NCBI GenBank assembly: GCA_029974275.1
Contig: JARKSN010000227.1
Span: 1-32,648, forward strand
Source of the DNA: Candidatus Hydrogenedentota bacterium
GTDB lineage: Bacteria > Hydrogenedentota > Hydrogenedentia > Hydrogenedentales > SLHB01
Reading direction: 5' to 3'
DNA length: 32,648 nt
This document shows positions 5,082 through 32,404 of this stretch, in pieces (the stretch's first letter is position 1; the number at the start of each line of letters is the position of its first letter). Made by a program: the position numbers and the translations under genes. The notes under the pieces are model-generated. The model saw only the letters and a list, made by a program, of their open reading frames with translations, was not told where the DNA came from and ran no database searches.

Positions 5082-7553
5082 TTACTTGGCGCGGCGGCCT
5101 TTCCAGAGGGGTTCGCGCATCTGACCCGGTTTCACGATTTGCTTGACCATTTCACGCTGCGCATTGGGAACCTGCGGCACGTCGCCCAGCTTGTCGTATT
5201 CCTCCTGCTGGTCGACGGTCAGCTCGGGCAGATTCTCCCCGACCACGCGACACGTCAGGAATACAAGCAGTTCCGTATGCGTCTTGTTGACTTGCGTGTT
5301 GCGGAAGAGGACGTTCATGATCGGCACGTCGCCCAGCACGGGGACTTTGTTGGCTTGAAGTTGGTCGTCGACGCGGCGTAGACCTCCAATGAAAATGGTG
5401 CGCCCGTCGGCGGTCTTGAGGGTGGTTGCCGTCTCGCGCTTGTCTTCGATGGGAATGCCGTTGGCCGTGCCGCTGATGGAGCTTTGTTTGGCCAAGATTT
5501 CGGCAATGATGTCGTTGCTGTGCGTGACGCGTGGCGTCACTTCCAGGGTGATGCCGATGTCTTTGAAAGAGGTTGAGGCCACCGGCGGTCCCTGGGTCGA
5601 TTGGGTGATTTCCTGGTAGGGATATTGCTGGACGATGCTGATGCTGGCTTTTTTGTTTTCGACCGACACCAGCATGGGATTGGCCAGAATTTCCGCGTTT
5701 CTGCTTTGCACCTCGGCCGCGATGGCCGCCTGGAGATCGAATTTCGACGTAAGGACGCCAAAGGTCAACAGGCCTGCGTTGAGGGTGCTCGTGCCGATGT
5801 TTTCGCCGAGGTTGGCGTTGTAATTGCCGTTTTTGGCGCTGCCCTTGAGATTGCCGCGCAGGTCTTGTCGATCGCGCAAAAGACCGGCCACGTTGCCGGA
5901 GGCGTCTCGCTGCTGCACCAAATCGAGCAGCCATTTGACCCCTGTCTCGGAATTGTCGGTCAATACGGCGTCGACGATCATGGCTTCGATGGAAACTTGT
6001 TTCACGGGAGAATCGACGCTTTTGATGACCTGACGCATTTGTTCGATCGCCACCGGATAGTCGGTGATGATTACGTTGCGGCCCCGCTCATCGATGGTCA
6101 CTTTGCCGACGTCCTTGGTGAGCATGGACTCGACGATCGGCTGTATGTCCGCGGGTTCGCCGTAGTTCAGGCTGATGGTTTCCGTCACGGTCGGAGCGGG
6201 AGGCTGCGTCGGCTTGGTGGTATCGAGTTCAAGGGCGAGCTGTTCCAGTTCCCGCACGCGTTTTTCGGGGCCAGAGACGATGATAACATTGGTGGCGTCG
6301 TTTGCGCTTACCGAGACCAACGTGGCGTCCGGGGCGCCCATGAGCACGTCTTGAAGGGTTTTGGAAACGTCCGTCGCTTTGGCGATTTGAAGCTTGACCG
6401 TCCGCGATACGCGGTTGATCTGCTGGGCTTGCTCATACGAAACAATACGGAAGACGCCTTCCTCCTCCACCATGCCCAAGCCGTTCATGCGCAGCACCAT
6501 CTCAATGGCCTGCCGCAAGGGAACGTTTTTGATGCTCGCAGTGACGGTCATGTTGGTCAGTTGGGTTCCGGCTAGGATGTTGATCTGGGCCTTTTGCGCG
6601 AGCAAGTTGACAACGTTGCTCAACTCCATGTCCCGGAAGTCGAGGCTGACCGGCAAGTTGAGTGGGTCCATGCCCGGCGGCAAGGGCTTGGCGTCAATGC
6701 CCACGGCCTGCCCATCGGATTTGTCTGCGGCTTTTTCGGAAGGCGCAACGCCGCCCAGCAGAATTGAAGCAGGTTGCGTGGACGAAGCGGCCTGCGATGA
6801 CGGAGCGGGACGCGCGGCGCGACTCGTCTCGTGAAGCAACTTCTTGACGTCTTGCACCATCTCGTTCATTTCAGATTGGGAAGGCTTGCCGCTCTCTTCC
6901 GCAGGATTTGCGGAGGCGGCAGGGGGAGCTTCGTCCGCCACCGAAGAGGCGGCGGGTTCGGCCTCGACCGGGAGTGGCGTCGCCGTATCTTCCGGGGAAA
7001 CCGCCAGGAGCATCGGATCCGAAAGGAATACGTCGAAGGATGCCGGGGACACGACAGACCATTCCGTCTGCGGAATGAAAGGAGCCCGACGCGTCTGTTC
7101 GCTGGGCATGGCGGCAAGATCGACGGCATTCGCTGCGGCAGACGTTTTATAGGCGGAGAGCTTCTCGGGGATGGACAGTAGATAGCCGTTTGCGCTTTCG
7201 ATCTTGGCCTGGAGCGACATGACCGCCGCGCCAGCCGCAGCCCAACGCGCCGCCCCGACCGTCGCCGGTTGCGATCGGCGGGATGGATCAGCAGCGACAT
7301 GGGGCGAAGCCAACGGCGTGCTGTGGTGCAACATATCCAGGTTGGTTTTCAGCGCGGCCATGGGATCGGCTGGCGATTCTGCCAGGCGTTGCAGGTCGGC
7401 TCCCAAACGCGCCACGGGATCGGCGTTGCCTAATGGGGGCGGCGTCGCCGGATCTTGCTGGGCCGCGGAAACGATCGCCGCCAGCGGCCACCCCATCCAG
7501 CAAATGAGGAGCGCGCCTGCCGCGATGGATATCGTGCGTTTGATGTGGCTCAT
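5082..7553 (-). CDS. pilQ: Type IV pilus secretin PilQ
   Basis: Signal peptide; VSLDFRDMEL (N0), secretin N-domain repeats, KQVSIEAMIV, GITLEVTPRV, KVPVLGDVPIMNVLFRN, ELLVFLT; last gene of pilMNOPQ. Confidence 0.9.
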   Translation of the reverse strand: MSHIKRTISIAAGALLICWMGWPLAAIVSAAQQDPATPPPLGNADPVARLGADLQRLAESPADPMAALKTNLDMLHHSTPLASPHVAADPSRRSQPATVGAARWAAAGAAVMSLQAKIESANGYLLSIPEKLSAYKTSAAANAVDLAAMPSEQTRRAPFIPQTEWSVVSPASFDVFLSDPMLLAVSPEDTATPLPVEAEPAASSVADEAPPAASANPAEESGKPSQSEMNEMVQDVKKLLHETSRAARPAPSSQAASSTQPASILLGGVAPSEKAADKSDGQAVGIDAKPLPPGMDPLNLPVSLDFRDMELSNVVNLLAQKAQINILAGTQLTNMTVTASIKNVPLRQAIEMVLRMNGLGMVEEEGVFRIVSYEQAQQINRVSRTVKLQIAKATDVSKTLQDVLMGAPDATLVSVSANDATNVIIVSGPEKRVRELEQLALELDTTKPTQPPAPTVTETISLNYGEPADIQPIVESMLTKDVGKVTIDERGRNVIITDYPVAIEQMRQVIKSVDSPVKQVSIEAMIVDAVLTDNSETGVKWLLDLVQQRDASGNVAGLLRDRQDLRGNLKGSAKNGNYNANLGENIGTSTLNAGLLTFGVLTSKFDLQAAIAAEVQSRNAEILANPMLVSVENKKASISIVQQYPYQEITQSTQGPPVASTSFKDIGITLEVTPRVTHSNDIIAEILAKQSSISGTANGIPIEDKRETATTLKTADGRTIFIGGLRRVDDQLQANKVPVLGDVPIMNVLFRNTQVNKTHTELLVFLTCRVVGENLPELTVDQQEEYDKLGDVPQVPNAQREMVKQIVKPGQMREPLWKGRRAK

Positions 7554-7556
7554 CGC

Positions 7557-8126
7557 CTATTTTTCCTCCAACTCGATGGCAATCATCGAATCATGAACCT
7601 TCAAATTCACTTTCCTGGGCCCAATGGAATGGACACTGATTCCTTGCGGAAATTCGTAGCCGGGCCAGACCACTTCGTTCTCGACAACCGCCACCGGCTT
7701 GTACGGATCCCAGATAATGCCCGTTACGCGCATTCGACGCGCATATGCTTCGAGTTGCATGGGTTGCGGAGCCTCGCCGTAACCTGCGGCGGCTCCCGAC
7801 GGGATCACCGGACGCAGCGCCGCCGCGCCGACAAGGGGACGCATCGGATCGCGCGGCATCTTTTCCGCGTCAAAGTCGAATACGTCGGTCTGGATGCCCG
7901 CCAACAATTCGTCCAGGTCTATTGGGTTCGTTTTCGCTTTGGCGGCTTGGGTCTGCGGAGCCGCCGGCGTCCCATCCGGGCCGGATGGGCCCGACGCGGA
8001 AGAGGCCGGAGCGGAGGCAGGCGGGGGGCCGTCCGGCGCGCCGCGGAGAAATTGATGCCAGATGACCGCCAGCAGCACGATTGCCAGGACGGCCACGATC
8101 AGGATTTGCTTGCGGTTGGCGTTCAC
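7557..8126 (-). CDS. pilP: PilP-like pilus assembly protein
   Basis: Position between pilO and pilQ; N-terminal TM, Pro/Ala linker, RDPMRP motif, VTGIIWD..KPVAVVE beta domain; GTG start. Confidence 0.65.
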   Translation of the reverse strand: MNANRKQILIVAVLAIVLLAVIWHQFLRGAPDGPPPASAPASSASGPSGPDGTPAAPQTQAAKAKTNPIDLDELLAGIQTDVFDFDAEKMPRDPMRPLVGAAALRPVIPSGAAAGYGEAPQPMQLEAYARRMRVTGIIWDPYKPVAVVENEVVWPGYEFPQGISVHSIGPRKVNLKVHDSMIAIELEEK

Positions 8127-8128
8127 GA

Positions 8129-8725
8129 TCAGGTTCCTGATGTCTGGGCGCTAGGTTGGGCGCCGGTGTTCGTCGGCATGAGGAATCGGAACGTGCTGAG
8201 GGTGAAGGTCGCCTCTGCGACTCCGTCCTTTTCTTCCTTGATCTCGATGTCCGATACCGCCAAGTAGCGCTCGTAACGCTCAATGCGATTGACAAAGCTT
8301 GCTATCTGGTCAAAGGTTCCCCGGGCGACGATGCCATAGGGAATCGTTTCTTTGCGTTCGTCTTTGGATCGTTTCTTGGTTTGCAATTCCACGGCAAGCC
8401 CCACTTGGTTCGCCATTTCTTCGAACTGCTTCAGCAAGCGCGCGATTTCCGCTTCGCCGGGCAAACGCTTCTCGAATTCTTTGACCAGTGTTTGGGTTTT
8501 CTCGGTCCGTGCGCGCAGTTCCTCGAATCTTCGTTCGGTTTCCTCGGCGGCCAGCATCTCGGCGCGGGTCTGATCGGTTTTAAGCGTCAATTCGTCGAGG
8601 GCGCGAAGTTGGCGGTTGTGAACGAAAAACACGAAGATCGCGCACACAAGCGCCAAAATCGCCGCCATGACGCCCACAGCCATCCAGTCTTTTGGGGTTA
8701 TCGTCCCTCTCAAGAAATCGATCAT
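8129..8725 (-). CDS. pilO: Type IV pilus assembly protein PilO
   Basis: TM plus coiled coil, RLPGEAEIARLL, GTFDQIASFVNRIE; operon position. Confidence 0.88.
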   Translation of the reverse strand: MIDFLRGTITPKDWMAVGVMAAILALVCAIFVFFVHNRQLRALDELTLKTDQTRAEMLAAEETERRFEELRARTEKTQTLVKEFEKRLPGEAEIARLLKQFEEMANQVGLAVELQTKKRSKDERKETIPYGIVARGTFDQIASFVNRIERYERYLAVSDIEIKEEKDGVAEATFTLSTFRFLMPTNTGAQPSAQTSGT

Positions 8726-9375
8726 GGCTTCTCTTCTCCCCCGGGACGGATGAAATATTCCAAGGTGAAGCTTTTGACCGGCTGTCCCTCGAAATCCGTA
8801 TCCTTGAGACTCGATGTGTCGAGTTGGAATAAGGATGAAAATTCTGGGTCTTGTTCGGTGGCCAAGGCGAGGGGGCTCACGTCACTCGTCGATCCCTGCG
8901 TCGCCACCACGTATCCGGAGACTTGGAGCATCGGTTTTTGGACGGTAACTTCTTTGGAGACCTGTTTTTTGGTGTTGGGGTCGATCACCATCACCTGTTC
9001 CGTGTAGGGTTTTTTGGCGACTTTGATGCCGCTGTACCAGAAGTTTTCCGGCGCGAGACGATCGAGGTTCCAGAGTTGGCGCGACCACAGGATGCGGGCC
9101 TGAATGATTTCGTTGATGGTGGTGATTTTCACCGCGAGCTCTTCTTCGAGGGCGGTCAGGCGTTTGGATTCGTTCACCACGGTTTGTAGTTCTTGCAGGC
9201 GCTTGGCATAGCGGTCGAGTTCGCCGCGTTTGGTCATGATCCGGGCTTGCGTGGCCACGGTCATGGAAGCCATCGCCGCAAGCGCGATGATAAAGGCCAG
9301 CACGGCCAGGATATAGGGCACGGGCGTGCGTTTGACGGGCCGTAGATGGTAAGGCAGTAAGTTGACGGTAATCAT
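8722..9375 (-). CDS. pilN: Type IV pilus assembly protein PilN
   Basis: N-terminal VNLLP PilM-binding motif, TM, coiled coil; 4-bp overlaps with pilM and pilO. Confidence 0.88.
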   Translation of the reverse strand: MITVNLLPYHLRPVKRTPVPYILAVLAFIIALAAMASMTVATQARIMTKRGELDRYAKRLQELQTVVNESKRLTALEEELAVKITTINEIIQARILWSRQLWNLDRLAPENFWYSGIKVAKKPYTEQVMVIDPNTKKQVSKEVTVQKPMLQVSGYVVATQGSTSDVSPLALATEQDPEFSSLFQLDTSSLKDTDFEGQPVKSFTLEYFIRPGGEEKP

Positions 9376-10601
9376 AAGTCCGCCATCCCCCGAGCGGCGA
9401 GTCCCAGCGCCACCATGAACGGCGCGGAGTTCTCTTGCATGCGAGCGACCTCGCGTTCGTTGCTGAAGTGTAGTCTACTTCGGGCGGGATCGGCCAATTC
9501 AAGTTGGTCCATGCCAAGGTCTTCCCGCAAAGTGTCGCGCAGCAATCCCAGGTGGGCCGCGCCTCCGCTCAGGATGAGGCGGTCCACGGGTTTTTCGTAC
9601 AGTTGGTGTTCGTAATAGTCGAACGAACGGCGAATCTCCGTCACCAGGCGTCCGAGCGGAGTGGCGAGGATGTCCGCAAGCCCGGTGGCTGCGGCAGGCG
9701 CGGCGGCCGGAGATGGCGGTTTTTGGGGAACCTCCGCCATGGCATCGAGTTCGTCGTCGAATGGGTCGAGCATGGAACCGCCAACCGGGGCAGATTCGGG
9801 AGGCGGTTCGGCTTCTGCGACATAGGCATTCTCGGGCGAAGGAAGGGGGGCTTCCTCCGAAGGATGATTTTTGTCGGCGGAAAATTCCAGGAGTTGGCGC
9901 TCGGCCTCGACGTAGTCGCATCGCGTGGCTTTGGCGATGGCTTGTATCAACTCGCGCGCTCCCCAGTTGACGTCGCGGATGAAGTTGGACATTCCGTCTT
10001 TGATGAAGTGAATGCTCGTGGTGGAAGCGCCGAGGTTTACCAAGGCCACGGTTTCTCCCACGCGAAGGAAGTCGCAGCATTCGGCTGCATCGGCCAAGGC
10101 AAGCGAATCCACGCTCAATATGCCGAATTTCACGTCCGCTGTTTGGGCTACTTGCACGCGGGTGTCGATGACTTCGTGCTTGGCCGCGACGAGAAGGACT
10201 TTTAGTTTGGTTTCTCCGGCCTCGATGACCCGATCGAGGACTGTCCAGTCGAGGAACACGTCGGAAAGCTCGTAGGGAATGCTTTGTCCCGCCTCTTTTT
10301 CGACAGCCACCGCCAATTCAGCGAGGGGCATTTCCGCAAAGCGCGGATACCGAATCACGACGGTCTGCCCCGGAAGAGCCCCTACGACAAGGCTCTGGGG
10401 CAATGGCATGTTGCGAATGGCTTCGGCGAGGGCTTCGGCTTGCGCCAGGAGTGGGTCGATGTTCATTTTGTTGGGATCGATGCGGGCGTAGCCGGCCTGG
10501 TCGACACGCATGCGCCCTCCCGCCTTGGACATTTGGATGGCCTTGACGGAATGCGTTCCGATGTCAATGCCTATCGCCTTACTCGGCTTGGAAAACAACA
10601 T
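9372..10601 (-). CDS. pilM: Type IV pilus assembly protein PilM (actin-like)
   Basis: IGIDIGTHSVK, VLLVAAK, EIRRSFDYY, LILSGGAA, VALGLAAR motifs. Confidence 0.93.
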   Translation of the reverse strand: MLFSKPSKAIGIDIGTHSVKAIQMSKAGGRMRVDQAGYARIDPNKMNIDPLLAQAEALAEAIRNMPLPQSLVVGALPGQTVVIRYPRFAEMPLAELAVAVEKEAGQSIPYELSDVFLDWTVLDRVIEAGETKLKVLLVAAKHEVIDTRVQVAQTADVKFGILSVDSLALADAAECCDFLRVGETVALVNLGASTTSIHFIKDGMSNFIRDVNWGARELIQAIAKATRCDYVEAERQLLEFSADKNHPSEEAPLPSPENAYVAEAEPPPESAPVGGSMLDPFDDELDAMAEVPQKPPSPAAAPAAATGLADILATPLGRLVTEIRRSFDYYEHQLYEKPVDRLILSGGAAHLGLLRDTLREDLGMDQLELADPARSRLHFSNEREVARMQENSAPFMVALGLAARGMADL

Positions 10602-10983: not shown

Positions 10984-10989
10984 GTTTGC

Positions 10990-11170
10990 TTTCCCCGCCA
11001 TTGCCGTTGGGAAACGGTAACTTATTGAACCTTTGCGCAACGTGGGCGCCCTCACGATGGCCGTTCGGCGTCCGCTCGGAGCGGCTTGTCGTTGGCCACA
11101 CAAATATCGGGCCCCCGGTCCAATAATTAAGGTACAAAGTTACTCGACCCATTCGAACAGGGCAGGGAAA
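10990..11170 (-). ncRNA. ssrS: 6S RNA
   Basis: 181-nt rod. 5' UUUCCCUGCC pairs with 3' GGCGGGGAAA; 6S-type motifs CCCUG..UGUUCG, GGCGCCCAC, GGUUCAA, CAACGGCA; helices GUAACU/AGUUAC, UUGUACC/GGUUCAA and GGGGGCCC/GGGCGCCC flank a central bubble; own promoter and terminator. Confidence 0.8.
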
Positions 11171-11195
11171 AACGTATTCGTTTTCCGATGTTTCC

Positions 11196-13197: not shown

Positions 13198-15336
13198 ATG
13201 ACCCGAACGTTCTTGTTTGTCGCGGTTTTATGTCTGCTGTGGATGGCGGAGGCTTCCGCCGGCAAGCAGCCGGCGTGTTTTGTTCGTGCGGGGATGAAAG
13301 GCGCTCCGGCCATCGTGGTTGACGGGAGGCCGCTCCTCCCCATTTTGCTCTCGTACGAAGGCGAGTCTCCCCCTCGTGATCGGATGTTGGGGATGGCGCG
13401 CACGGCCCATGCGTCGGGCATCGACCTGATCTGTTTCCCCATCGCGCTGGATTGGCACTGCCCAGACGCGGAAGCATCCCAGACGATAGACGCGTTCTGC
13501 TCGGCCAACCCCAATGCTTTTTTTTACGTGAAAATGTGGATGGGGCCCGACGCTTCGTGGCTTGCCGAACACCCGGACGAGTGCGCCGTGGATGCCGATG
13601 GTTCGGGTTTGGCGTATGCTTCGATCGCGAGTTTGGCATGGCGCGAGGTTGCTGCTGAAAAACTTCGCGCGCGATTGCGTTTGATCCTCGATGGGCCGTA
13701 TGGAGACCGGTTCATTGGGGTTGGGATCGCTTATCTCGAGGGGGGCGGGTGGTTCTATCCGGTGGCCACTGGGCTTACCGATTATTCGTGGCCGCATCGG
13801 GCCGCCTACCGCGCATGGCTCAGGGCAAAATATCGTTCGGACAAACGATTGCGCGTTGCCTGGGACCGGGACGATGTTACGCTGCGTTCGGCGGAGTCGC
13901 CGCGTCCCGAGGAATTCGAAGCGGCAGCCGTAGCGCCGTTCCGCGACCCGAAAGCCCAGGCGCCGGCGATTGATTTCTTGCGTTTTCAGTATGCGTCGAT
14001 GGCGGAAGCCATTGCCTATTTCGCGGGCGTGGCGAAGGAGGAAATGCAGGGCCGGGGCGTGGTGGGGGTCTGGCATGGATACACGTTCGATTTGCCTGGA
14101 GAAGGTCCTTATGCGCTCGAACGTTCCGGTCATGTGGCGCTGGGACAGCTTCTGGCGTGTAAGGATATTGATATCATTCACCTTCCTTATTCGCGTTTCG
14201 ATCGGGAAATCGGCTGTCCGGGACATGTTCCCCTTGCCGTAGACTCTCTGGCGCTTCACGGCAAGCTCGGCCTTTTGGAGGATGACACGTTTCTGCATCG
14301 ATCTTCGCCTCTCGCCGGGGACAAGGCGCCGCCGGACCGTCCGCATCGCGCCTTCACGTCCGAACAGACCTTGGCGTTGGCGCAGCGAAATGCCGGAAAT
14401 TCCCTGATGCATCGCTGCGGATATGGGTTTGTCGACCGCTTTGGGGATGAAGGTTGGAGCGGCGCGTTCGGGGGGGGCGCGACGCAGCTGTTGCGACGTA
14501 TGGCGGCGGAGACGCGGGCGTATCCCTTCCGGCCTGAAATTGCGGTCGTGGTGGACGAGGATGCCGCCTTATCGGTGTCCGGGAAAGGCCATGCGTTGTT
14601 GGAGCAGAGCCTCGGGCGTTGGCGTTTCGAACTTGATCGTCTCGGCGCGCCGGTCGGCTATTATCTCCAAAGCGACTTGGAGCGCATCCCGGATTCGGTG
14701 AAAGCGTTGATTTTGGTGAATCCTTATGTCGTTTCAAGGCGTTTTCGTCTCGATATCGATCGCTTGTATGGACGAGGCGTAACCGTCGTGTGGACGTATG
14801 CGCCGGGCGTGGCTGGACCGGATGAAATCGATTGGGGCCGCATCGGCTCCATCACGGGAATCGCCGCCGCGTCGCGCATGGATGCCGCGCCGCTCCATGT
14901 AGTGGCCGCGCCTGTCGCCGACGAGATTGATTTTGGGGCGCTGGATGGATTGCCGCGCGTCGTCATCGCCGACGAACAGGCGCATCCTCTAGCACGGTAT
15001 GCCGATTCCGGGGAAATCGCTATTGCGGCGGCGCCGTGGCGCGGCGGAACTTCGGTATTTTCGGCCGTCCCAAGAATTCCGGTCGGTTTGCTGCGGTGGA
15101 TATGCGCGCGCGCCGGGGCGAGTTTCTACCGCAGCACGCCGGGGCATGTCGCCGTGGCAGGGCCGTATCTCGTGGTCCATGCGGAGAAGACCGGCCGCCT
15201 CGCGCTGAGTTGGCCCTCCCCGTTCCGGGTCGCGGACCGCCTCCTCCCCGCTCGCATCGGATCCATTTCGGTCGAGGATGGTTCATTTGTGGACGAACTG
15301 CTCGCCGGAACGACGGCGGTGTATATCTGCGAATAG
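13198..15336 (+). CDS. Secreted glycoside hydrolase, GH-A clan (GH42/beta-galactosidase-like)
   Basis: Signal peptide MTRTFLFVAVLCLLWMAEASA; WLAEHPDE, DYS..HRAAYRAWLRAKY..L..AW, SLALHGKL..LEDDT; GH42 trimerisation-like C-terminal region. Confidence 0.7.
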   Translation: MTRTFLFVAVLCLLWMAEASAGKQPACFVRAGMKGAPAIVVDGRPLLPILLSYEGESPPRDRMLGMARTAHASGIDLICFPIALDWHCPDAEASQTIDAFCSANPNAFFYVKMWMGPDASWLAEHPDECAVDADGSGLAYASIASLAWREVAAEKLRARLRLILDGPYGDRFIGVGIAYLEGGGWFYPVATGLTDYSWPHRAAYRAWLRAKYRSDKRLRVAWDRDDVTLRSAESPRPEEFEAAAVAPFRDPKAQAPAIDFLRFQYASMAEAIAYFAGVAKEEMQGRGVVGVWHGYTFDLPGEGPYALERSGHVALGQLLACKDIDIIHLPYSRFDREIGCPGHVPLAVDSLALHGKLGLLEDDTFLHRSSPLAGDKAPPDRPHRAFTSEQTLALAQRNAGNSLMHRCGYGFVDRFGDEGWSGAFGGGATQLLRRMAAETRAYPFRPEIAVVVDEDAALSVSGKGHALLEQSLGRWRFELDRLGAPVGYYLQSDLERIPDSVKALILVNPYVVSRRFRLDIDRLYGRGVTVVWTYAPGVAGPDEIDWGRIGSITGIAAASRMDAAPLHVVAAPVADEIDFGALDGLPRVVIADEQAHPLARYADSGEIAIAAAPWRGGTSVFSAVPRIPVGLLRWICARAGASFYRSTPGHVAVAGPYLVVHAEKTGRLALSWPSPFRVADRLLPARIGSISVEDGSFVDELLAGTTAVYICE

Positions 15337-15480: not shown

Positions 15481-16521
15481 ATGCTTGAGATCAGCGTTGT
15501 CATACCCGCCAAAGACCATCGCCCCCAACTGGCGGCGCTGTTGGATAGTCTGCGCGAAGAGAGCCAGCGGGGTTTTCTGCGCGAAGTGATCGTGGTGGAT
15601 GACGGATCGGACCCGCCGCTTGCTCCGGTCGTAGAAGCCAGAGGCGCGCGCTGCATCCGGCTGGAACAGAACCAAGGCCCTGCGCACGGAAGAAACGTCG
15701 GCGCGCGCGAAGCCGTGGGGGATGTTCTGTTTTTTATGGATGCGGACGTGCTTTGCCCTCCTGGCGCCGTCGAGAAAGCCCACGCGGTCCTCGCCCAGAA
15801 CCCCGACACGGCGGCTGTCTCGTTCATGAACCAGGCGTTCGTCGAGCGCGACAACACTTTCCAGAATTATGGAGCGGCGATCGAGCGTTTTTGGTTCGAA
15901 TCATTTTTTGGAGACGACGAGGATGTCGCCCCCATTTCCGGGTTTATGACGCGCTGCGGCGCGATTCGGAAGGATGCCTTCTGGGCGTTGGAAGGATTCG
16001 ACGAGACCTACCGGACCAACGCGCACGAAGACTACGATTTCGGCAAGCGGCTTGGCGTTCGTTTCAAATCCGTGATGACTCGGGAGCCTGTTTTTCACCA
16101 CGACTATCCCGCCTCGCTGCGCCGTCTGATTCGGAATTATTGGGTCCGGATCACGTTATTCGTTCCTTACTACCTCGAACGGCGTCCGGCGTTGGACAAG
16201 GCCCAGATATCCCGAAAGGAAGCCTTTCTCCGCCTACTGGGCTTGCTGGCTCCCGGATTTTTTCTGCTCGCTCTTCTTCCCGCGCCCGCAAAGCTGCTGT
16301 GGGGATTGGCGGGGGCGGGTTCCCTGGCGGCATATGGCTTCTATACGCGACGTTTTCTTCGCGCCGCGCGAGCATGGAGCGGAACCTTGCGTTTCGCAGC
16401 GGCCGCTTTTGTCATCCATTATGTCAGTTCGCTCGTGATTTGCGCGGGGGGGGGGTGGGCATTGGGCCAATGCGTTCTTGGCCGGTTCCGCCGCACCGCG
16501 CGGGTTGCACCGATCCGATAA
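15481..16521 (+). CDS. GT2 glycosyltransferase with C-terminal membrane helices
   Basis: ISVVIPA, VIVVDDGS, GPAHGRNVG, FMDAD, GFDE..EDYDFG; hydrophobic C-terminus. Confidence 0.92.
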   Translation: MLEISVVIPAKDHRPQLAALLDSLREESQRGFLREVIVVDDGSDPPLAPVVEARGARCIRLEQNQGPAHGRNVGAREAVGDVLFFMDADVLCPPGAVEKAHAVLAQNPDTAAVSFMNQAFVERDNTFQNYGAAIERFWFESFFGDDEDVAPISGFMTRCGAIRKDAFWALEGFDETYRTNAHEDYDFGKRLGVRFKSVMTREPVFHHDYPASLRRLIRNYWVRITLFVPYYLERRPALDKAQISRKEAFLRLLGLLAPGFFLLALLPAPAKLLWGLAGAGSLAAYGFYTRRFLRAARAWSGTLRFAAAAFVIHYVSSLVICAGGGWALGQCVLGRFRRTARVAPIR

Positions 16522-20515: not shown

Positions 20516-20542
20516 TTAAGTTCTCGCCGCCGCTGCCGATAT
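20516..20542 (+). promoter_or_regulatory. sigma28 (FliA/SigD/WhiG)-type promoter, unit 1
   Basis: TTAAGTTC-N11-GCCGATAT versus consensus TAAAGTTT-N11-GCCGATA(A/T). Confidence 0.7.
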
Positions 20543-20549
20543 ATCGCAT

Positions 20550-20716
20550 GTAAGGCAGAGGCCGGGAGCCTATGCCGCCGAAGACCCCCAAGCGGACTGT
20601 TTTCTGTATCTGGATAACGTCCAAAGAGTTTAACCCCGCTCTTCGTCTTGGAGACGTCTTGGCAATATCCTCGAGCGTTCGCCGCAATCCCCTGGTTGCG
20701 GCGATTCTCTTTTTTT
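20550..20716 (+). ncRNA. Candidate sigma28-dependent sRNA 1 (~165 nt)
   Basis: Bounded by a sigma28-type promoter and a terminator; internal helices CCAAG/CUUGG, UGGA/UCCA and AAGAG/CUCUU with a C-rich loop. Ends inferred. Confidence 0.5.
20679..20716 (+). terminator. Intrinsic terminator, unit 1
   Basis: TCGCCGCAA/TTGCGGCGA 9-bp perfect stem (11 bp with inner U-G and C-G) followed by TTCTCTTTTTTT. Confidence 0.8.
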
Positions 20717-20730
20717 GGCGCGCACATCAT

Positions 20731-20757
20731 TCAAGTTTTCCCGCTGTTTGCCGATAT
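20731..20757 (+). promoter_or_regulatory. sigma28-type promoter, unit 2
   Basis: TCAAGTTT-N11-GCCGATAT, one mismatch from consensus; begins 15 bp after terminator 1. Confidence 0.75.
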
Positions 20758-20763
20758 ATGGGG

Positions 20764-20924
20764 CGCAAGCCGAGACAAGGAGGTCGAGGCTGATTTTGAC
20801 AAGGATGTCGCAGTTGCGTAAGCAACCTGGAGTGCTTCATCCCACACTTCAGGGGGGACATTGGGGCCCCGAGTCTTACCTCCAGTGAAAGCGCCGCAAT
20901 TCGTTTGCGGCGCTTTCCGTTTTT
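20764..20924 (+). ncRNA. Candidate sigma28-dependent sRNA 2 (~160 nt) with two CsrA-type sites; may also encode a 27-30 aa peptide
   Basis: GACAAGGAGGUC and UGACAAGGAUGUCG hairpins; GUUGC-GUAA-GCAAC; CCUGGAGUG/CACUUCAGG; long-range GGAGGU/ACCUCC; ends in a terminator. Confidence 0.55.
20887..20924 (+). terminator. Intrinsic terminator, unit 2
   Basis: GAAAGCGCCGCAA (20887-20899) / TTGCGGCGCTTTC (20905-20917), 13-bp perfect stem, then CGTTTTT. Confidence 0.8.
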
Positions 20925-20967: not shown

Positions 20968-20996
20968 TTGGGTGCAAGCATGCGTTTCAGTATACT
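20968..20996 (+). promoter_or_regulatory. Putative sigma70 promoter of mdh
   Basis: TTGGGT-N17-TATACT, 35 bp upstream of the mdh ATG. Confidence 0.45.
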
Positions 20997-21031: not shown

Positions 21032-21982
21032 ATGCCAGGGGGAAAGCGTTTTCGGATTGCGTGCATAGGGGCGGGCAACGTTGGAGCATTGGTCGCGCAG
21101 TATTGTCTGGGCATGCAGTTGGGCGACGTGGTGCTCACGGACGTCGTGGAGGGGCTGCCTCAGGGCAAGGCCTTGGATCTGACGGAGGCGGGCCCGGTCC
21201 GCGGATACAGTTGCATGGCGATGGGAACGAACGATTACGCCGATATTTCGGGCTGCAATATCTGCGTGGTCACGGCGGGCATTCCGCGCAAGCCGGGAAT
21301 GACGCGGCTTGATCTGCTGGAAACGAACGGGAAAATCGTTTCCGACATTTGCGAGAACATCGGGCGGTATGCGCCGGAGAGCGTGGTCATTATCGTTACG
21401 AATCCGCTGGACGTGATGACGTATCTTGCGTACAAGCGGCTGGGGTTTCCGCCGCGCCGGGTCATGGGAATGGCGGGGACGCTGGACAGCGCGCGCATGC
21501 GCACCTTCGTGGCGGCGGAGTTGGGCGTGAGCATGAAGAACGTGGACACCATGGTGCTGGGTTCTCATGGCGATGAGATGGTGGCGTTGCCGGAATATAC
21601 GACGGTGTCGGGGGTTCCAATCACCCAGTTGCTGCCCAGCGATCGGATCGAGGCGATCATCGATCGCACGAAGCAGGGCGGCGGCGAGATCGTGGCGTTG
21701 TTGAAGTCCGGGAGCGCCTATTTCGCCCCGGCGGCAAGCGTGGCGCGCATGGTGCAGTGCATTCTGAACGATGAGCGTCAGATTTTGCCGTGTTCGGCGT
21801 ATTTGACGGGGCAGTACGACTTGAAGGATGTGTTTATTGGCGTTCCTGTCCGGCTTGGACAGGGAGGGGTCGAGGAAGTGCTGGAGCTTGATCTGGCTCC
21901 TGACAAGCGCGAGGCGCTTCACCGATCCGCCGCCGAGGTGCGCAAGGGTATCGAGGAATTGCATCACGTGAAGTTATTGTGA
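21032..21982 (+). CDS. mdh: Malate dehydrogenase (LDH-like type)
   Basis: GAGNVG, GLPQGKALDL, TAGIPRKPGMTRLDL (Arg102), GSHGD, GSAYFAPA; ATG 21032 with GGAGG SD. Confidence 0.93.
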   Translation: MPGGKRFRIACIGAGNVGALVAQYCLGMQLGDVVLTDVVEGLPQGKALDLTEAGPVRGYSCMAMGTNDYADISGCNICVVTAGIPRKPGMTRLDLLETNGKIVSDICENIGRYAPESVVIIVTNPLDVMTYLAYKRLGFPPRRVMGMAGTLDSARMRTFVAAELGVSMKNVDTMVLGSHGDEMVALPEYTTVSGVPITQLLPSDRIEAIIDRTKQGGGEIVALLKSGSAYFAPAASVARMVQCILNDERQILPCSAYLTGQYDLKDVFIGVPVRLGQGGVEEVLELDLAPDKREALHRSAAEVRKGIEELHHVKLL

Positions 21983-26477: not shown

Positions 26478-27422
26478 ATGATTCAGAAGCGGACCGTTGG
26501 CATCCTGGGCGCCGGCAAGGTCGGCATGGCGGCGGCCTACGGCATGTTCAACGCCGACACCGTCAGCGAGATGATTCTGGTCGATAAGGACGAGCAGCGC
26601 GCCGAAGGCGAGGCGATGGATCTTATGCATGGCGCTTCCCTTGCAGAGCCCGTCACCGTGCGGTCGGGCTCATTCGCTTCTCTGGGGTCTTCGCAACTGG
26701 TGGTGGTGTCGGCAGGGACGGGACGCAAGCCGGGCGAAACGCGCCTCGATCTCCTGAATCGGAACGTCGCCATTTTTCGCGAGATCGTCGCGGAACTCGA
26801 TCGGCACGCCCCCAATGCCATATTGGTGGTGGCCACCAATCCCGTTGACATCATCACGCATGTCATCCAGCAGCTCAGTCAGCGTCCTCGGTCTCGGGTC
26901 ATCGGCACCGGCACGATGCTGGACACGTCGCGCTTCAGGGCTTTGCTGGGGCAGCACTACGGCGTGGATCCTCGATCGGTGCATGCCTACATTCTCGGGG
27001 AACACGGCGATTCGGAGGTTCCGATCTGGAGCAACGCCTCGATCGGCGGTTTGCGGCTGCGGGAACGGCCTGTTCTTGGAAAGTCTTTTGACGAGGGAGC
27101 GATGAACGCCTTGTTTGAGCGCGTTCGGTTCGCCGGACGGGAAGTGATAGCGCGCAAGGGTTTCACCAGTTCGGCGATTGGCATCGTCATCCAGCATCTT
27201 TGCGAGACGATCCTCGATGATCAGCGAACGGTTTTGACCGTCAGCGTGCCGTTCGAGGGCGAATACGGCATCGAGGGCGTTTGCATGAGTCTTCCCTGTG
27301 TTGTCGGCCAGAACGGCATCGAGGGCCGCATTGTCGCCACGTTGAGCGACGAAGAGACGGTCGCGATGCGTCATTCCGCGAGCGTGATCAAGGAAAGCAT
27401 GCAGGGAATTTCTCTCGCGTAA
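26478..27422 (+). CDS. LDH/MDH-family 2-hydroxyacid dehydrogenase; LDH scaffold with Arg at specificity position 102
   Basis: GAGKVG, AEGEAMDLMH, AGTGRKPGETRLDL, GTMLDTSRFR, GEHGDSE, KGFTSSAI; ATG 26478 with GGAG SD. Confidence 0.9.
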   Translation: MIQKRTVGILGAGKVGMAAAYGMFNADTVSEMILVDKDEQRAEGEAMDLMHGASLAEPVTVRSGSFASLGSSQLVVVSAGTGRKPGETRLDLLNRNVAIFREIVAELDRHAPNAILVVATNPVDIITHVIQQLSQRPRSRVIGTGTMLDTSRFRALLGQHYGVDPRSVHAYILGEHGDSEVPIWSNASIGGLRLRERPVLGKSFDEGAMNALFERVRFAGREVIARKGFTSSAIGIVIQHLCETILDDQRTVLTVSVPFEGEYGIEGVCMSLPCVVGQNGIEGRIVATLSDEETVAMRHSASVIKESMQGISLA

Positions 27423-32016: not shown

Positions 32017-32092
32017 GCTGGCGTAGCTCAGCTGGTAGAGCAGCTGACTTGTAATCAGCAGGTCGGGGGTTCGATTCCCTTCGCCAGCTCCA
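32017..32092 (+). tRNA. tRNA-Thr(UGU)
   Basis: Cloverleaf; anticodon arm GCTGA-CTTGTAA-TCAGC; GGTTCGATTCC; CCA encoded. Confidence 0.97.
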
Positions 32093-32134
32093 GGCATGGC
32101 GGCGCGTCAGCCAAAGGGGTGGCGTTTTCGTTGT

Positions 32135-32217
32135 GGTGGGATGTCCGAGTGGCTAAAGGAGACGGGCTGTAAACCCGTTGGCTAGCGCCTACGTAGGTTC
32201 GAATCCTACTCCCACCA
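32135..32217 (+). tRNA. tRNA-Tyr(GUA)
   Basis: GGTGGGA/TCCCACC acceptor stem; ACGGG-CTGTAAA-CCCGT; long variable arm; CCA not encoded. Confidence 0.97.
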
Positions 32218-32234
32218 TTTTTCTTTCGATATCG

Positions 32235-32311
32235 GCGGGAATAGCTCAGTTGGCTAGAGCGTCAGCCTTCCAAGCTGAGGGTCGCGGGTTCGAATCCCGT
32301 TTCCCGCTCCA
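32235..32311 (+). tRNA. tRNA-Gly(UCC)
   Basis: TCAGC-CTTCCAA-GCTGA anticodon arm; CCA encoded. Confidence 0.97.
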
Positions 32312-32328
32312 TAATGCCTGTATCCCGG

Positions 32329-32404
32329 GCCCGCGTAGCTCAGTCGGTAGAGCACCACCATGGTAAGGTGGGGGTCATCAGTTCGATTCTGATCGCGGGC
32401 TCCA
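32329..32404 (+). tRNA. tRNA-Thr(GGU)
   Basis: CCACC-ATGGTAA-GGTGG anticodon arm; CCA encoded. Confidence 0.97.

Follow-up and report, generated by a model that had tools for sequence, protein, structure and literature searches.

Genomic context and layout of the two units

The window analyzed here, the whole 32,648-nucleotide stretch of DNA, is one contig (C106) of a 4.38-Mb, 100%-complete genome of a Candidatus Hydrogenedentota bacterium (the source genome). It encodes a type IV pilus cluster with PilM, PilO and a secretin (5082-10601, minus strand), a 6S RNA (10988-11171, minus strand), the mdh gene at 21032, a second and distant malate/lactate dehydrogenase-like frame with 28% identity to mdh (26493-27404, plus strand) and four tRNAs (32017-32401, plus strand). 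The region upstream of mdh contains two tandem units, each with a promoter of the sigma28 (FliA) type, a predicted structured RNA and an intrinsic terminator (Table 1).

Table 1. Features of the two units. Positions are those of the window; R1 and R2 are the covariance models described in the text, and RBS is ribosome-binding site.
Feature	Position	Strand	Details
Promoter 1, sigma28 (FliA)-type	20516..20542	+	-35 octamer 20516-20523, 11 nt, -10 octamer 20535-20542
Unit 1	20549..20716	+	predicted ~165-nt RNA; canonical CsrA module absent; promoter and terminator give the predicted ends; R2 match 20599-20712
Unit 1 5' hairpin	20554..20576	+	single, degenerate GGA loop, perhaps a weak CsrA site; from fold; no R1 match
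Unit 1 C-rich-loop hairpin (module B)	20624..20643	+	loop 20630-20637; from fold
Unit 1 seed	20660..20672	+	13 nt, perfectly complementary to flagellin 1 over its RBS and the first base of its start codon
Unit 1 intrinsic terminator and U tract	20679..20716	+	hairpin 20679-20704; covaries across family
Promoter 2, sigma28 (FliA)-type	20731..20757	+	-35 octamer 20731-20738, 11 nt, -10 octamer 20750-20757
Unit 2	20764..20924	+	predicted ~160-nt RNA: CsrA module, loop hairpin, seed, terminator
Unit 2 CsrA-consensus hairpin 1	20769..20790	+	GAC-ANGGAN-GUC on GCC/GGC stem, GA/GA internal loop
Unit 2 CsrA-consensus hairpin 2	20798..20809	+	stem invariant in 33/33 aligned homologs
Unit 2 AUCCC-loop hairpin (module B)	20827..20852	+	loop complementary to GGGAU loop of flagellin 2 leader
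Unit 2 seed	20866..20883	+	pairs across flagellin 2 RBS and start codon
Unit 2 intrinsic terminator and tail	20887..20924	+	hairpin 20887-20917

An earlier note on this DNA had described structured sequence behind each promoter and a core shared by the two terminators. Folding z-scores of -2.6 for unit 1 and -4.4 for unit 2 bear out the former (3 of 200 and 0 of 200 shuffled sequences, respectively, fold equally well), and the core is found in both terminator hairpins, where it is the terminator consensus of the RNA family described below. In the predicted fold of unit 2, hairpin 1 sequesters the seed. The note had recognized neither unit as a known RNA family, and no Rfam model reaches its gathering score in 20516..20924; the four sub-threshold matches there are at chance level (E 2-9), none of them to a Csr/Rsm family. 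The Rfam models of RsaE/RoxS and of Csr/Rsm RNAs leave both units unmatched, and over nine related loci no family reached the gathering score except one tRNA.

The proposed independence of the units from mdh agrees with a terminator between the units and mdh and with the occurrence of the promoter at 0 of 29 mdh loci of relatives. Conserved synteny with mdh was considered and none was found in relatives. For the separate mdh promoter that had been placed at 20968-20996, a TATACT hexamer is present at 20991-20996, whereas a sigma70 scan returned no sites, which leaves this promoter weakly supported.

Sigma28 promoters and the late flagellar regulon

The two sigma28-like motifs with 11-nt spacers, from which the earlier note had started, are present exactly where it placed them. 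A pattern built from both sites and the consensus, a mildly circular choice, matches the window twice and 100 shuffled versions of it not at all; the textbook TAAAG form has no match in the window because the sites read TTAAG and TCAAG. Genome-wide, seven sites match the strict sigma28 pattern and ten match a looser one. Six of these ten lie upstream of flgK, flgN(-flgL), fliD, two flgM-like genes and a flagellin operon; the remaining four are those of units 1 and 2, that of a paralog on contig C310 and one within an open reading frame. An additional sigma28 site lies 79 nt ahead of the stand-alone flagellin. The motif is shared with late flagellar genes and is therefore the late-flagellar promoter of the source genome. 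Two checks that had been suggested, for a sigma28-family factor and for the same promoter before flagellar genes, came out in favor of the assignment: the genome encodes a FliA/WhiG factor (TIGR02479, 247.8 bits, above cut-off), and the motif precedes the flgK, flgN, fliD, flgM-like and flagellin genes.

The two flgM-like genes (L426 and L427, on contigs C112 and C239) score 24.8 and 24.5 bits with Pfam, slightly below the 25-bit cut-off, and each has its own sigma28 promoter; the leader of the C112 gene contains a CsrA-like hairpin. The operon of flagellins 1 and 2 (L046:2100-2556 (-), on contig C151) has a 432-nt leader downstream of its sigma28 promoter, with several GGA hairpins, an internal terminator-like hairpin and no Rfam match. 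Leaders of 200-570 nt are frequent on first-in-operon flagellins of relatives.

A structured RNA family in the order

Searches with unit 2 identified a paralog on contig C310 (14348-14525, minus strand; L045:550-745 (-)), 73% identical over 182 nt (E 1e-16), and BLAST matches in 50 of the 133 genomes of the order. Four modules are common to the homologs: module A, two GAC-ANGGAN-GUC hairpins located 14-20 nt downstream of the -10 box; module B, a hairpin with an AUCCC loop; module C, a C/U-rich strand immediately before the terminator; and the terminator. We trained two covariance models without any source-genome sequence, R1 for module A and R2 for modules B and C with the terminator; the training set of R2 was selected by promoter, the promoter itself being outside the model. 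R1 matches 98 and R2 matches 100 of the 133 genomes.

In the source genome R2 recovers unit 2 (E 7e-10), the C310 copy (1e-7) and unit 1 (5e-6), with the next match at 0.01. R1 does not match unit 1 at E<=1, and a BLAST search with unit 1 over the 133 genomes returned itself and four short, weak matches, so that unit 1 is placed by the structure model only. As the third-best R2 match it is therefore a family member, despite having neither a BLAST homolog nor an R1 match. The suggestion of a duplicated and diverged pair of motility-regulon small RNAs thus gains support from a model trained without either unit, which assigns both to one family, and the tandem arrangement recurs in 14 of 42 other loci.

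Altogether we collected 128 distinct R2 matches from 55 genomes, 122 of them with a sigma28 promoter upstream and with predicted lengths of 121-275 nt across the family. Two CsrA-consensus hairpins are present in 87 of the 128 members, none in 29, one in 9 and four in 3. In module A, 99% of alignment cells are paired, with 7 cells changed on both sides and an A-U pair replaced by G-C in 5 of 33 sequences; hairpin 2 is uninformative on covariation because it is invariant. The terminator covaries at 14 of 14 pairs on an unfitted alignment. Unaided RNAalifold on the MAFFT alignment recovered the terminator only and not helix B, the stem of the loop hairpin. Helix B has double changes at 5 of 5 pairs and 84% of cells paired, exceeding shuffled and slid controls, on an alignment that was fitted to the model and as such leans toward it. 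The C-rich UCCC loop is predicted to be unpaired in 94 of 106 members and makes up the most conserved columns of the alignment of modules B and C and the terminator (A2).

The distribution of the family follows that of flagellar regulators, with members in the majority of flagellated relatives. FliA is encoded in 101 and CsrA in 102 of the 133 genomes of the order, and FliW in 105 of 135 genomes of the phylum. When R1 is set against the presence of FliA or CsrA, 95 of the 133 genomes have both, 3 have the RNA only, 10 have a gene only and 25 have neither, a co-occurrence that rests on few lineages of non-independent kin, since 21 of the 25 double negatives are from family f11. In this largely non-flagellated family R1 is confined to the two FliA-bearing genomes. 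FliW is also present in 93 of the 98 genomes with R1 matches (counted by hand). The two members of the phylum outside the order encode FliW, but the promoter-hairpin pattern and R2 are found in neither (0 of 2). Viral contigs gave no matches to the promoter with two hairpins.

Scanning named genomes for pairs of CsrA-type hairpins gave at least 135 matches, at least 20 of them with an upstream sigma28 promoter. Among the matches listed, the 20 promoter-bearing ones include, by record titles, 9 from Ca. Hydrogenedentota, 8 from uncultured Nitrospirales/Nitrospiraceae and 1 from Hydrogenispora. The eight Nitrospirales/Nitrospiraceae-titled records (L087, L100, L104, L109, L165, L169, L180, L185) have the promoter and both hairpins, and several have the full family layout. 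Two loci, L078:367-465 (+), from the Hydrogenispora-titled record, and L422:130-450 (-), combine a sigma28 promoter, 2-3 CsrA-consensus hairpins and a terminator without a loop or seed module. Both lie near a tRNA gene (confirmed by Rfam for L078, by eye for L422), and L422 has two such units in tandem; 2 of 301 genomes in the sample of that phylum matched. These units could possibly be pure CsrA sponges in Firmicutes-related bacteria.

We conclude that the two units belong to a real and apparently undescribed RNA family. In a search through listings of mostly open-access literature, we found no report of this family or of its combination of features in a FliW lineage.

Predicted pairing of the seeds with flagellin translation starts

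The CsrA-consensus hairpins of unit 2 and the flagellin-specific antisense seeds, which the earlier note had missed, indicate what the units may do. The source genome encodes three full flagellins of 271 amino acids. Flagellins 1 (start at 16097) and 2 (14177-14992) are encoded on the minus strand of contig C151 and share 89% identity; flagellin 3, on contig C81, has 72-74% identity with either. By complementarity, the seeds are antisense to flagellin RBSs, that of unit 1 to flagellin 1 and that of unit 2 to flagellin 2. The reverse complement of the unit 1 13-mer has two occurrences in the genome. One is simply the opposite strand of unit 1; the other, the single match in trans, covers the flagellin 1 RBS and the first base of the flagellin 1 start codon. 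The predicted duplex of unit 1 has an energy of -31.6 kcal/mol with flagellin 1, against -16.8 and -17.4 with the other two flagellins; the values for unit 2 are -29.0 kcal/mol with flagellin 2 against -18.0 and -18.9, and those for the C310 copy -29.3 kcal/mol with flagellin 2 against -18.2 and -14.4. Flagellin 3 is thus spared by the seeds of both units.

Against a background of 3349 other start regions, which were crudely called, the pairing of unit 1 with flagellin 1 ranks first and is equaled by none. The pairing of unit 2 with flagellin 2 is matched or beaten by 25 of the 3349 (15 of the 643 with a Shine-Dalgarno, SD, sequence), and that of the C310 copy with flagellin 2 by 24 of 3349. 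Since the pairing of unit 2 is not unique, its case rests on the family. Energies of the loop-loop contact do not separate flagellins 1 and 2, and the base beside UCCC finds a pairing partner in the leader in only 51 of 67 cases. A coiled-coil gene on contig C84 was set aside as a target, its partial seed match lying 42 nt inside the longest open reading frame.

For the family as a whole, we compared seeds with the flagellins of their own genomes. Flagellin searches gave 194 matches in 50 of 52 chosen genomes, reduced to 145 start regions in 49 genomes including the source genome; 116 of the 128 RNAs have a full seed and come from these genomes, and for 82 RNAs the genome has three or more flagellin starts. 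Seeds pair better with the flagellins of their own genome than with size-matched flagellin sets of other genera for 70 of these 82 RNAs and in 19 of 20 genera, with mean duplex energies of -35.4 (own) and -30.5 (foreign); for the other 12 RNAs foreign flagellins fit at least equally well. When only operon-type flagellins are considered, the cognate set is better for 72 of 84 RNAs and in 20 of 21 genera, and it is still better in 15 of 16 genera when the foreign operon-type flagellins are drawn from the same family. Exact complementarity of 11 bases or more to a flagellin of the same genome is found in 28 of 116 seeds, compared with 0-2 in 20 draws of SD-bearing controls, and the longest exact complements are 20, 19, 17 and 16 nt. 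For 58 of the 82 RNAs, none of 150 SD-bearing control starts pairs as well as the cognate flagellins. The duplexes of the best-target pairs listed span the SD sequence and the start codon. Paralogous RNAs divide two or more flagellins among them in 19 of 28 genomes, and members without CsrA hairpins pair about as well as those with them (-34.4 and -36.2 kcal/mol). At L402:34-147, paired with L350 (genome G040), an atypical flagellin RBS is matched over 16 exact bases by an equally atypical seed; this seed has at most 10 exact bases with any of 137 foreign flagellins, a joint departure from consensus.

Regular expressions, with some misassignments, sort the flagellin leaders into three types, according to whether the gene stands alone, comes first in a tandem operon or lies downstream in one. 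Of the 43 stand-alone genes, 36 have a sigma28 promoter no more than 110 nt away. Leaders of downstream genes have a GGGA hairpin loop at a median of 37 nt upstream of the start; this type-defining loop is mostly outside the scoring because the scored window ends at -28. The best target is a downstream-operon gene for 70 of the 82 RNAs, a first-in-operon gene for 11 and a stand-alone gene for 1, with 56, 33 and 27 such starts available. In a tree of the 90 full-length sequences among 144 flagellin proteins, the three leader types do not separate into clades. Regulation of the targeted flagellins by sigma54 was considered and is unsupported: the sigma54 motif searched for occurs in none of 139 flagellin upstream regions, even though RpoN is present.

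CsrA and FliW

The csrA gene adjoins fliW in the source genome. Its product has Asn at position 55, the residue described for B. subtilis CsrA as required for FliW binding (10.1101/2020.07.02.184341). Hfq was not found in the source genome. The two hairpins of unit 2, for which unit 1 has no counterpart, match the SELEX consensus RUACARGGAUGU and the six-nucleotide loop as summarized in PMC7652899. Flagellin leaders of all types, including the spared ones, have about two CsrA-like ANGGA sites per 60 nt of leader, and the leader of the stand-alone flagellin resembles module A, being the third R1 match in the genome (E 0.011). The 29 of the 128 members that have no CsrA hairpins, unit 1 among them, pair similarly, so that CsrA is not necessary for the seed to exist, and since the leaders themselves bear CsrA-like sites, the need for a guide is not obvious. 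Unmasking of the seed by CsrA was predicted for unit 2 but rejected as a general feature, accessibility increasing in only 19 of 77 members.

Comparison with known RNAs

The mechanisms are related to parts already known from CjNC1/4, FliX, PasE and the UCCC seeds of RsaE. CjNC1 and CjNC4 of Campylobacter jejuni (CJnc10/CJnc170, or FlmR) are paralogous, sigma28-dependent RNAs, as is predicted of the units. These RNAs are Hfq-independent and predicted to pair over flagellar RBSs, including that of the minor flagellin flaB, in an organism with CsrA and FliW. They differ in being ~45 nt long with one shared seed and sigma54 class II targets (PMC4626219, PMC11187230), whereas the present family has 121-275 nt, paralog-specific seeds for particular flagellins and in most members a CsrA module, and no Rfam match links the two.

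PasE of enteropathogenic E. coli resembles unit 2 in placing two CsrA-binding hairpins and a seed on one RNA, a layout found in unit 2 and in 87 of the 128 members, and not in unit 1. PasE is stabilized by CsrA, which is guided to the paired mRNA; unlike unit 2, it is 56 nt long with a 5' seed and virulence targets, in an organism with CsrB and Hfq (10.64898/2026.08.12.744399). RNAs of the unit 2 type, here compared with PasE by architecture, have a 3' seed, an additional UCCC loop, a sigma28 promoter and a CsrA of the FliW-regulated type, and their predicted targets are flagellin starts that already bear CsrA-like sites.

CsrB, CsrC and RsmX/Y/Z share with unit 2 the GGA in short SELEX-type hairpin loops and the stand-alone, terminated RNA, and are under BarA-UvrY (PMC7652899), whereas the present family has promoters of the sigma28 type. 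It also differs in having two sites (four in 3 of 128 members), a fused antisense seed, a FliW-bearing phylum and no Rfam match; the many GGA hairpins that characterize CsrB-type sponges are absent from the 128 members. The E. coli RNAs UhpU, MotR, FliX and FlgO are sigma28-dependent, as is predicted of the units, and FliX pairs with fliC mRNA and lowers flagellin, but they are UTR-derived, bound by Hfq and pair within the coding sequence of a single flagellin (PMC10578931); CsrA does not occur in the main text of that paper. RsaE of Staphylococcus directs an unpaired UCCC motif against translation-initiation regions without Hfq (PMC2790875), and in SR1-ahrC of Bacillus subtilis, a FliW organism, CsrA promotes the pairing of sRNA and mRNA (PMC6546359), as proposed here. 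Both RsaE and SR1 differ in having metabolic targets, other promoters and no Rfam match to the family.

Proposed mechanism and alternatives

Pairing of a bacterial small RNA across the SD sequence and AUG most likely represses translation. The explanation we favor, with moderate confidence, is that the units are sigma28-driven antisense RNAs that would repress selected flagellin paralogs, CsrA serving as cofactor for members of the unit 2 type. Its antisense core, which is common to this explanation and to the first alternative below, is well supported and is probably correct; the role of CsrA, argued from analogy, would be the weaker step. In this scheme FliA would transcribe both ~160-nt, trans-acting RNAs alongside the flagellins, after completion of the hook. 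The exposed C-rich loop would make the first contact with the GGGA loop ~37 nt upstream of the target start, a plausible contact, after which the seed would pair across SD and AUG, with a predicted block of flagellin translation. Operon flagellins would be lowered and the stand-alone flagellin, with its own close sigma28 promoter, spared, and the ratio or order of subunits would thereby be set. On unit 2, CsrA may act as a stabilizer or guide through the two consensus hairpins; it is favored as the cofactor because Hfq was not found and by analogy to PasE and SR1. With CsrA as cofactor, repression would be coupled to free CsrA, which would rise through the FliW partner switch when unsecreted flagellin builds up.

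The most serious alternative, which we consider possible though unlikely, keeps the antisense arm and detaches it from CsrA: the seed would repress operon flagellins, and the hairpins would merely titrate CsrA as a small CsrB/RsmZ-like sponge. Titration would lift CsrA repression of the spared stand-alone flagellin, and so both arms would shift the filament toward that flagellin. The hairpins are 24 nt apart in the RNA, and two hairpins at this spacing would suit a single CsrA dimer clamping the RNA alone. The resemblance of the stand-alone leader to module A, the four hairpins of 3 of the 128 members and the seedless sigma28 units with 2-3 hairpins in L078 and L422 also fit two independent arms. 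Known sponges are nevertheless far richer in sites (13-22 in CsrB/C; PMC6546359), the module is fused to a seed in all Hydrogenedentota members inspected, and FliW already antagonizes this type of CsrA.

We regard it as improbable that the pairing, although real, does not block ribosomes and instead causes the polycistronic flagellin mRNA to be processed or degraded, or changes the structure of leaders such that CsrA is displaced. Duplexes of up to 20 exact base pairs would be long enough for a double-strand nuclease, and the targets are mostly downstream cistrons with neither a sigma28 nor a sigma54 motif of their own nearby. A duplex over SD and start codon is, on the other hand, the usual geometry of translational repression, with which activation is hard to reconcile.

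Still less credible is that the RNAs are pure CsrA sponges, whose C/U-rich 3' strand would be an internal anti-GGA strand or a generic anti-SD sequence that matches flagellins incidentally. The 3' strand of unit 2 does pair with hairpin 1 in the predicted fold, and any CCUCC can pair with SD sequences; but only 11 of 77 members are predicted to pair internally in this way, seeds co-vary with the flagellins of their own genomes and mostly prefer these to every SD-bearing control, and unit 1, which has no CsrA module, still has its unique 13-nt match. The idea that this is no regulatory RNA at all, and instead a small-protein gene (an ATG in hairpin 2 of unit 2 opens a 27-codon frame from 20805), an mdh leader or silent remnants, can practically be set aside, as the ATG is present in 41 of 77 members with frames of 2 to 100 codons and no conserved reading frame, a terminator precedes mdh, the promoter is missing from relatives' mdh loci, and the stems co-vary.

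Implications for flagellin regulation

For bacteria that make several near-identical flagellins, it is poorly explained how the ratio between them is set. Extending the antisense explanation with CsrA as cofactor, we tentatively suggest, as an idea less likely than that explanation itself, that the order as a whole might use CsrA-loaded guide RNAs, each with a seed addressing one flagellin start and delivering FliW-regulated CsrA to it, so that the repertoire of RNAs would encode the order and ratio of 3-7 near-identical flagellins. Matched pairs of RNA and target co-vary over some 20 genera, and the predictions are therefore testable with simple reporters. A 2020 review (PMC7652899) lists joint action of FliW and small RNAs on CsrA as still to be determined in any species; the reading of these RNAs as CsrA guides, if true, would provide an example in which FliW and dedicated small RNAs both act on one CsrA. 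The more than 100 natural variants of the family, with and without the CsrA module, would allow CsrA guiding to be tested outside E. coli, in bacteria of which the source genome is one where no Hfq was found.
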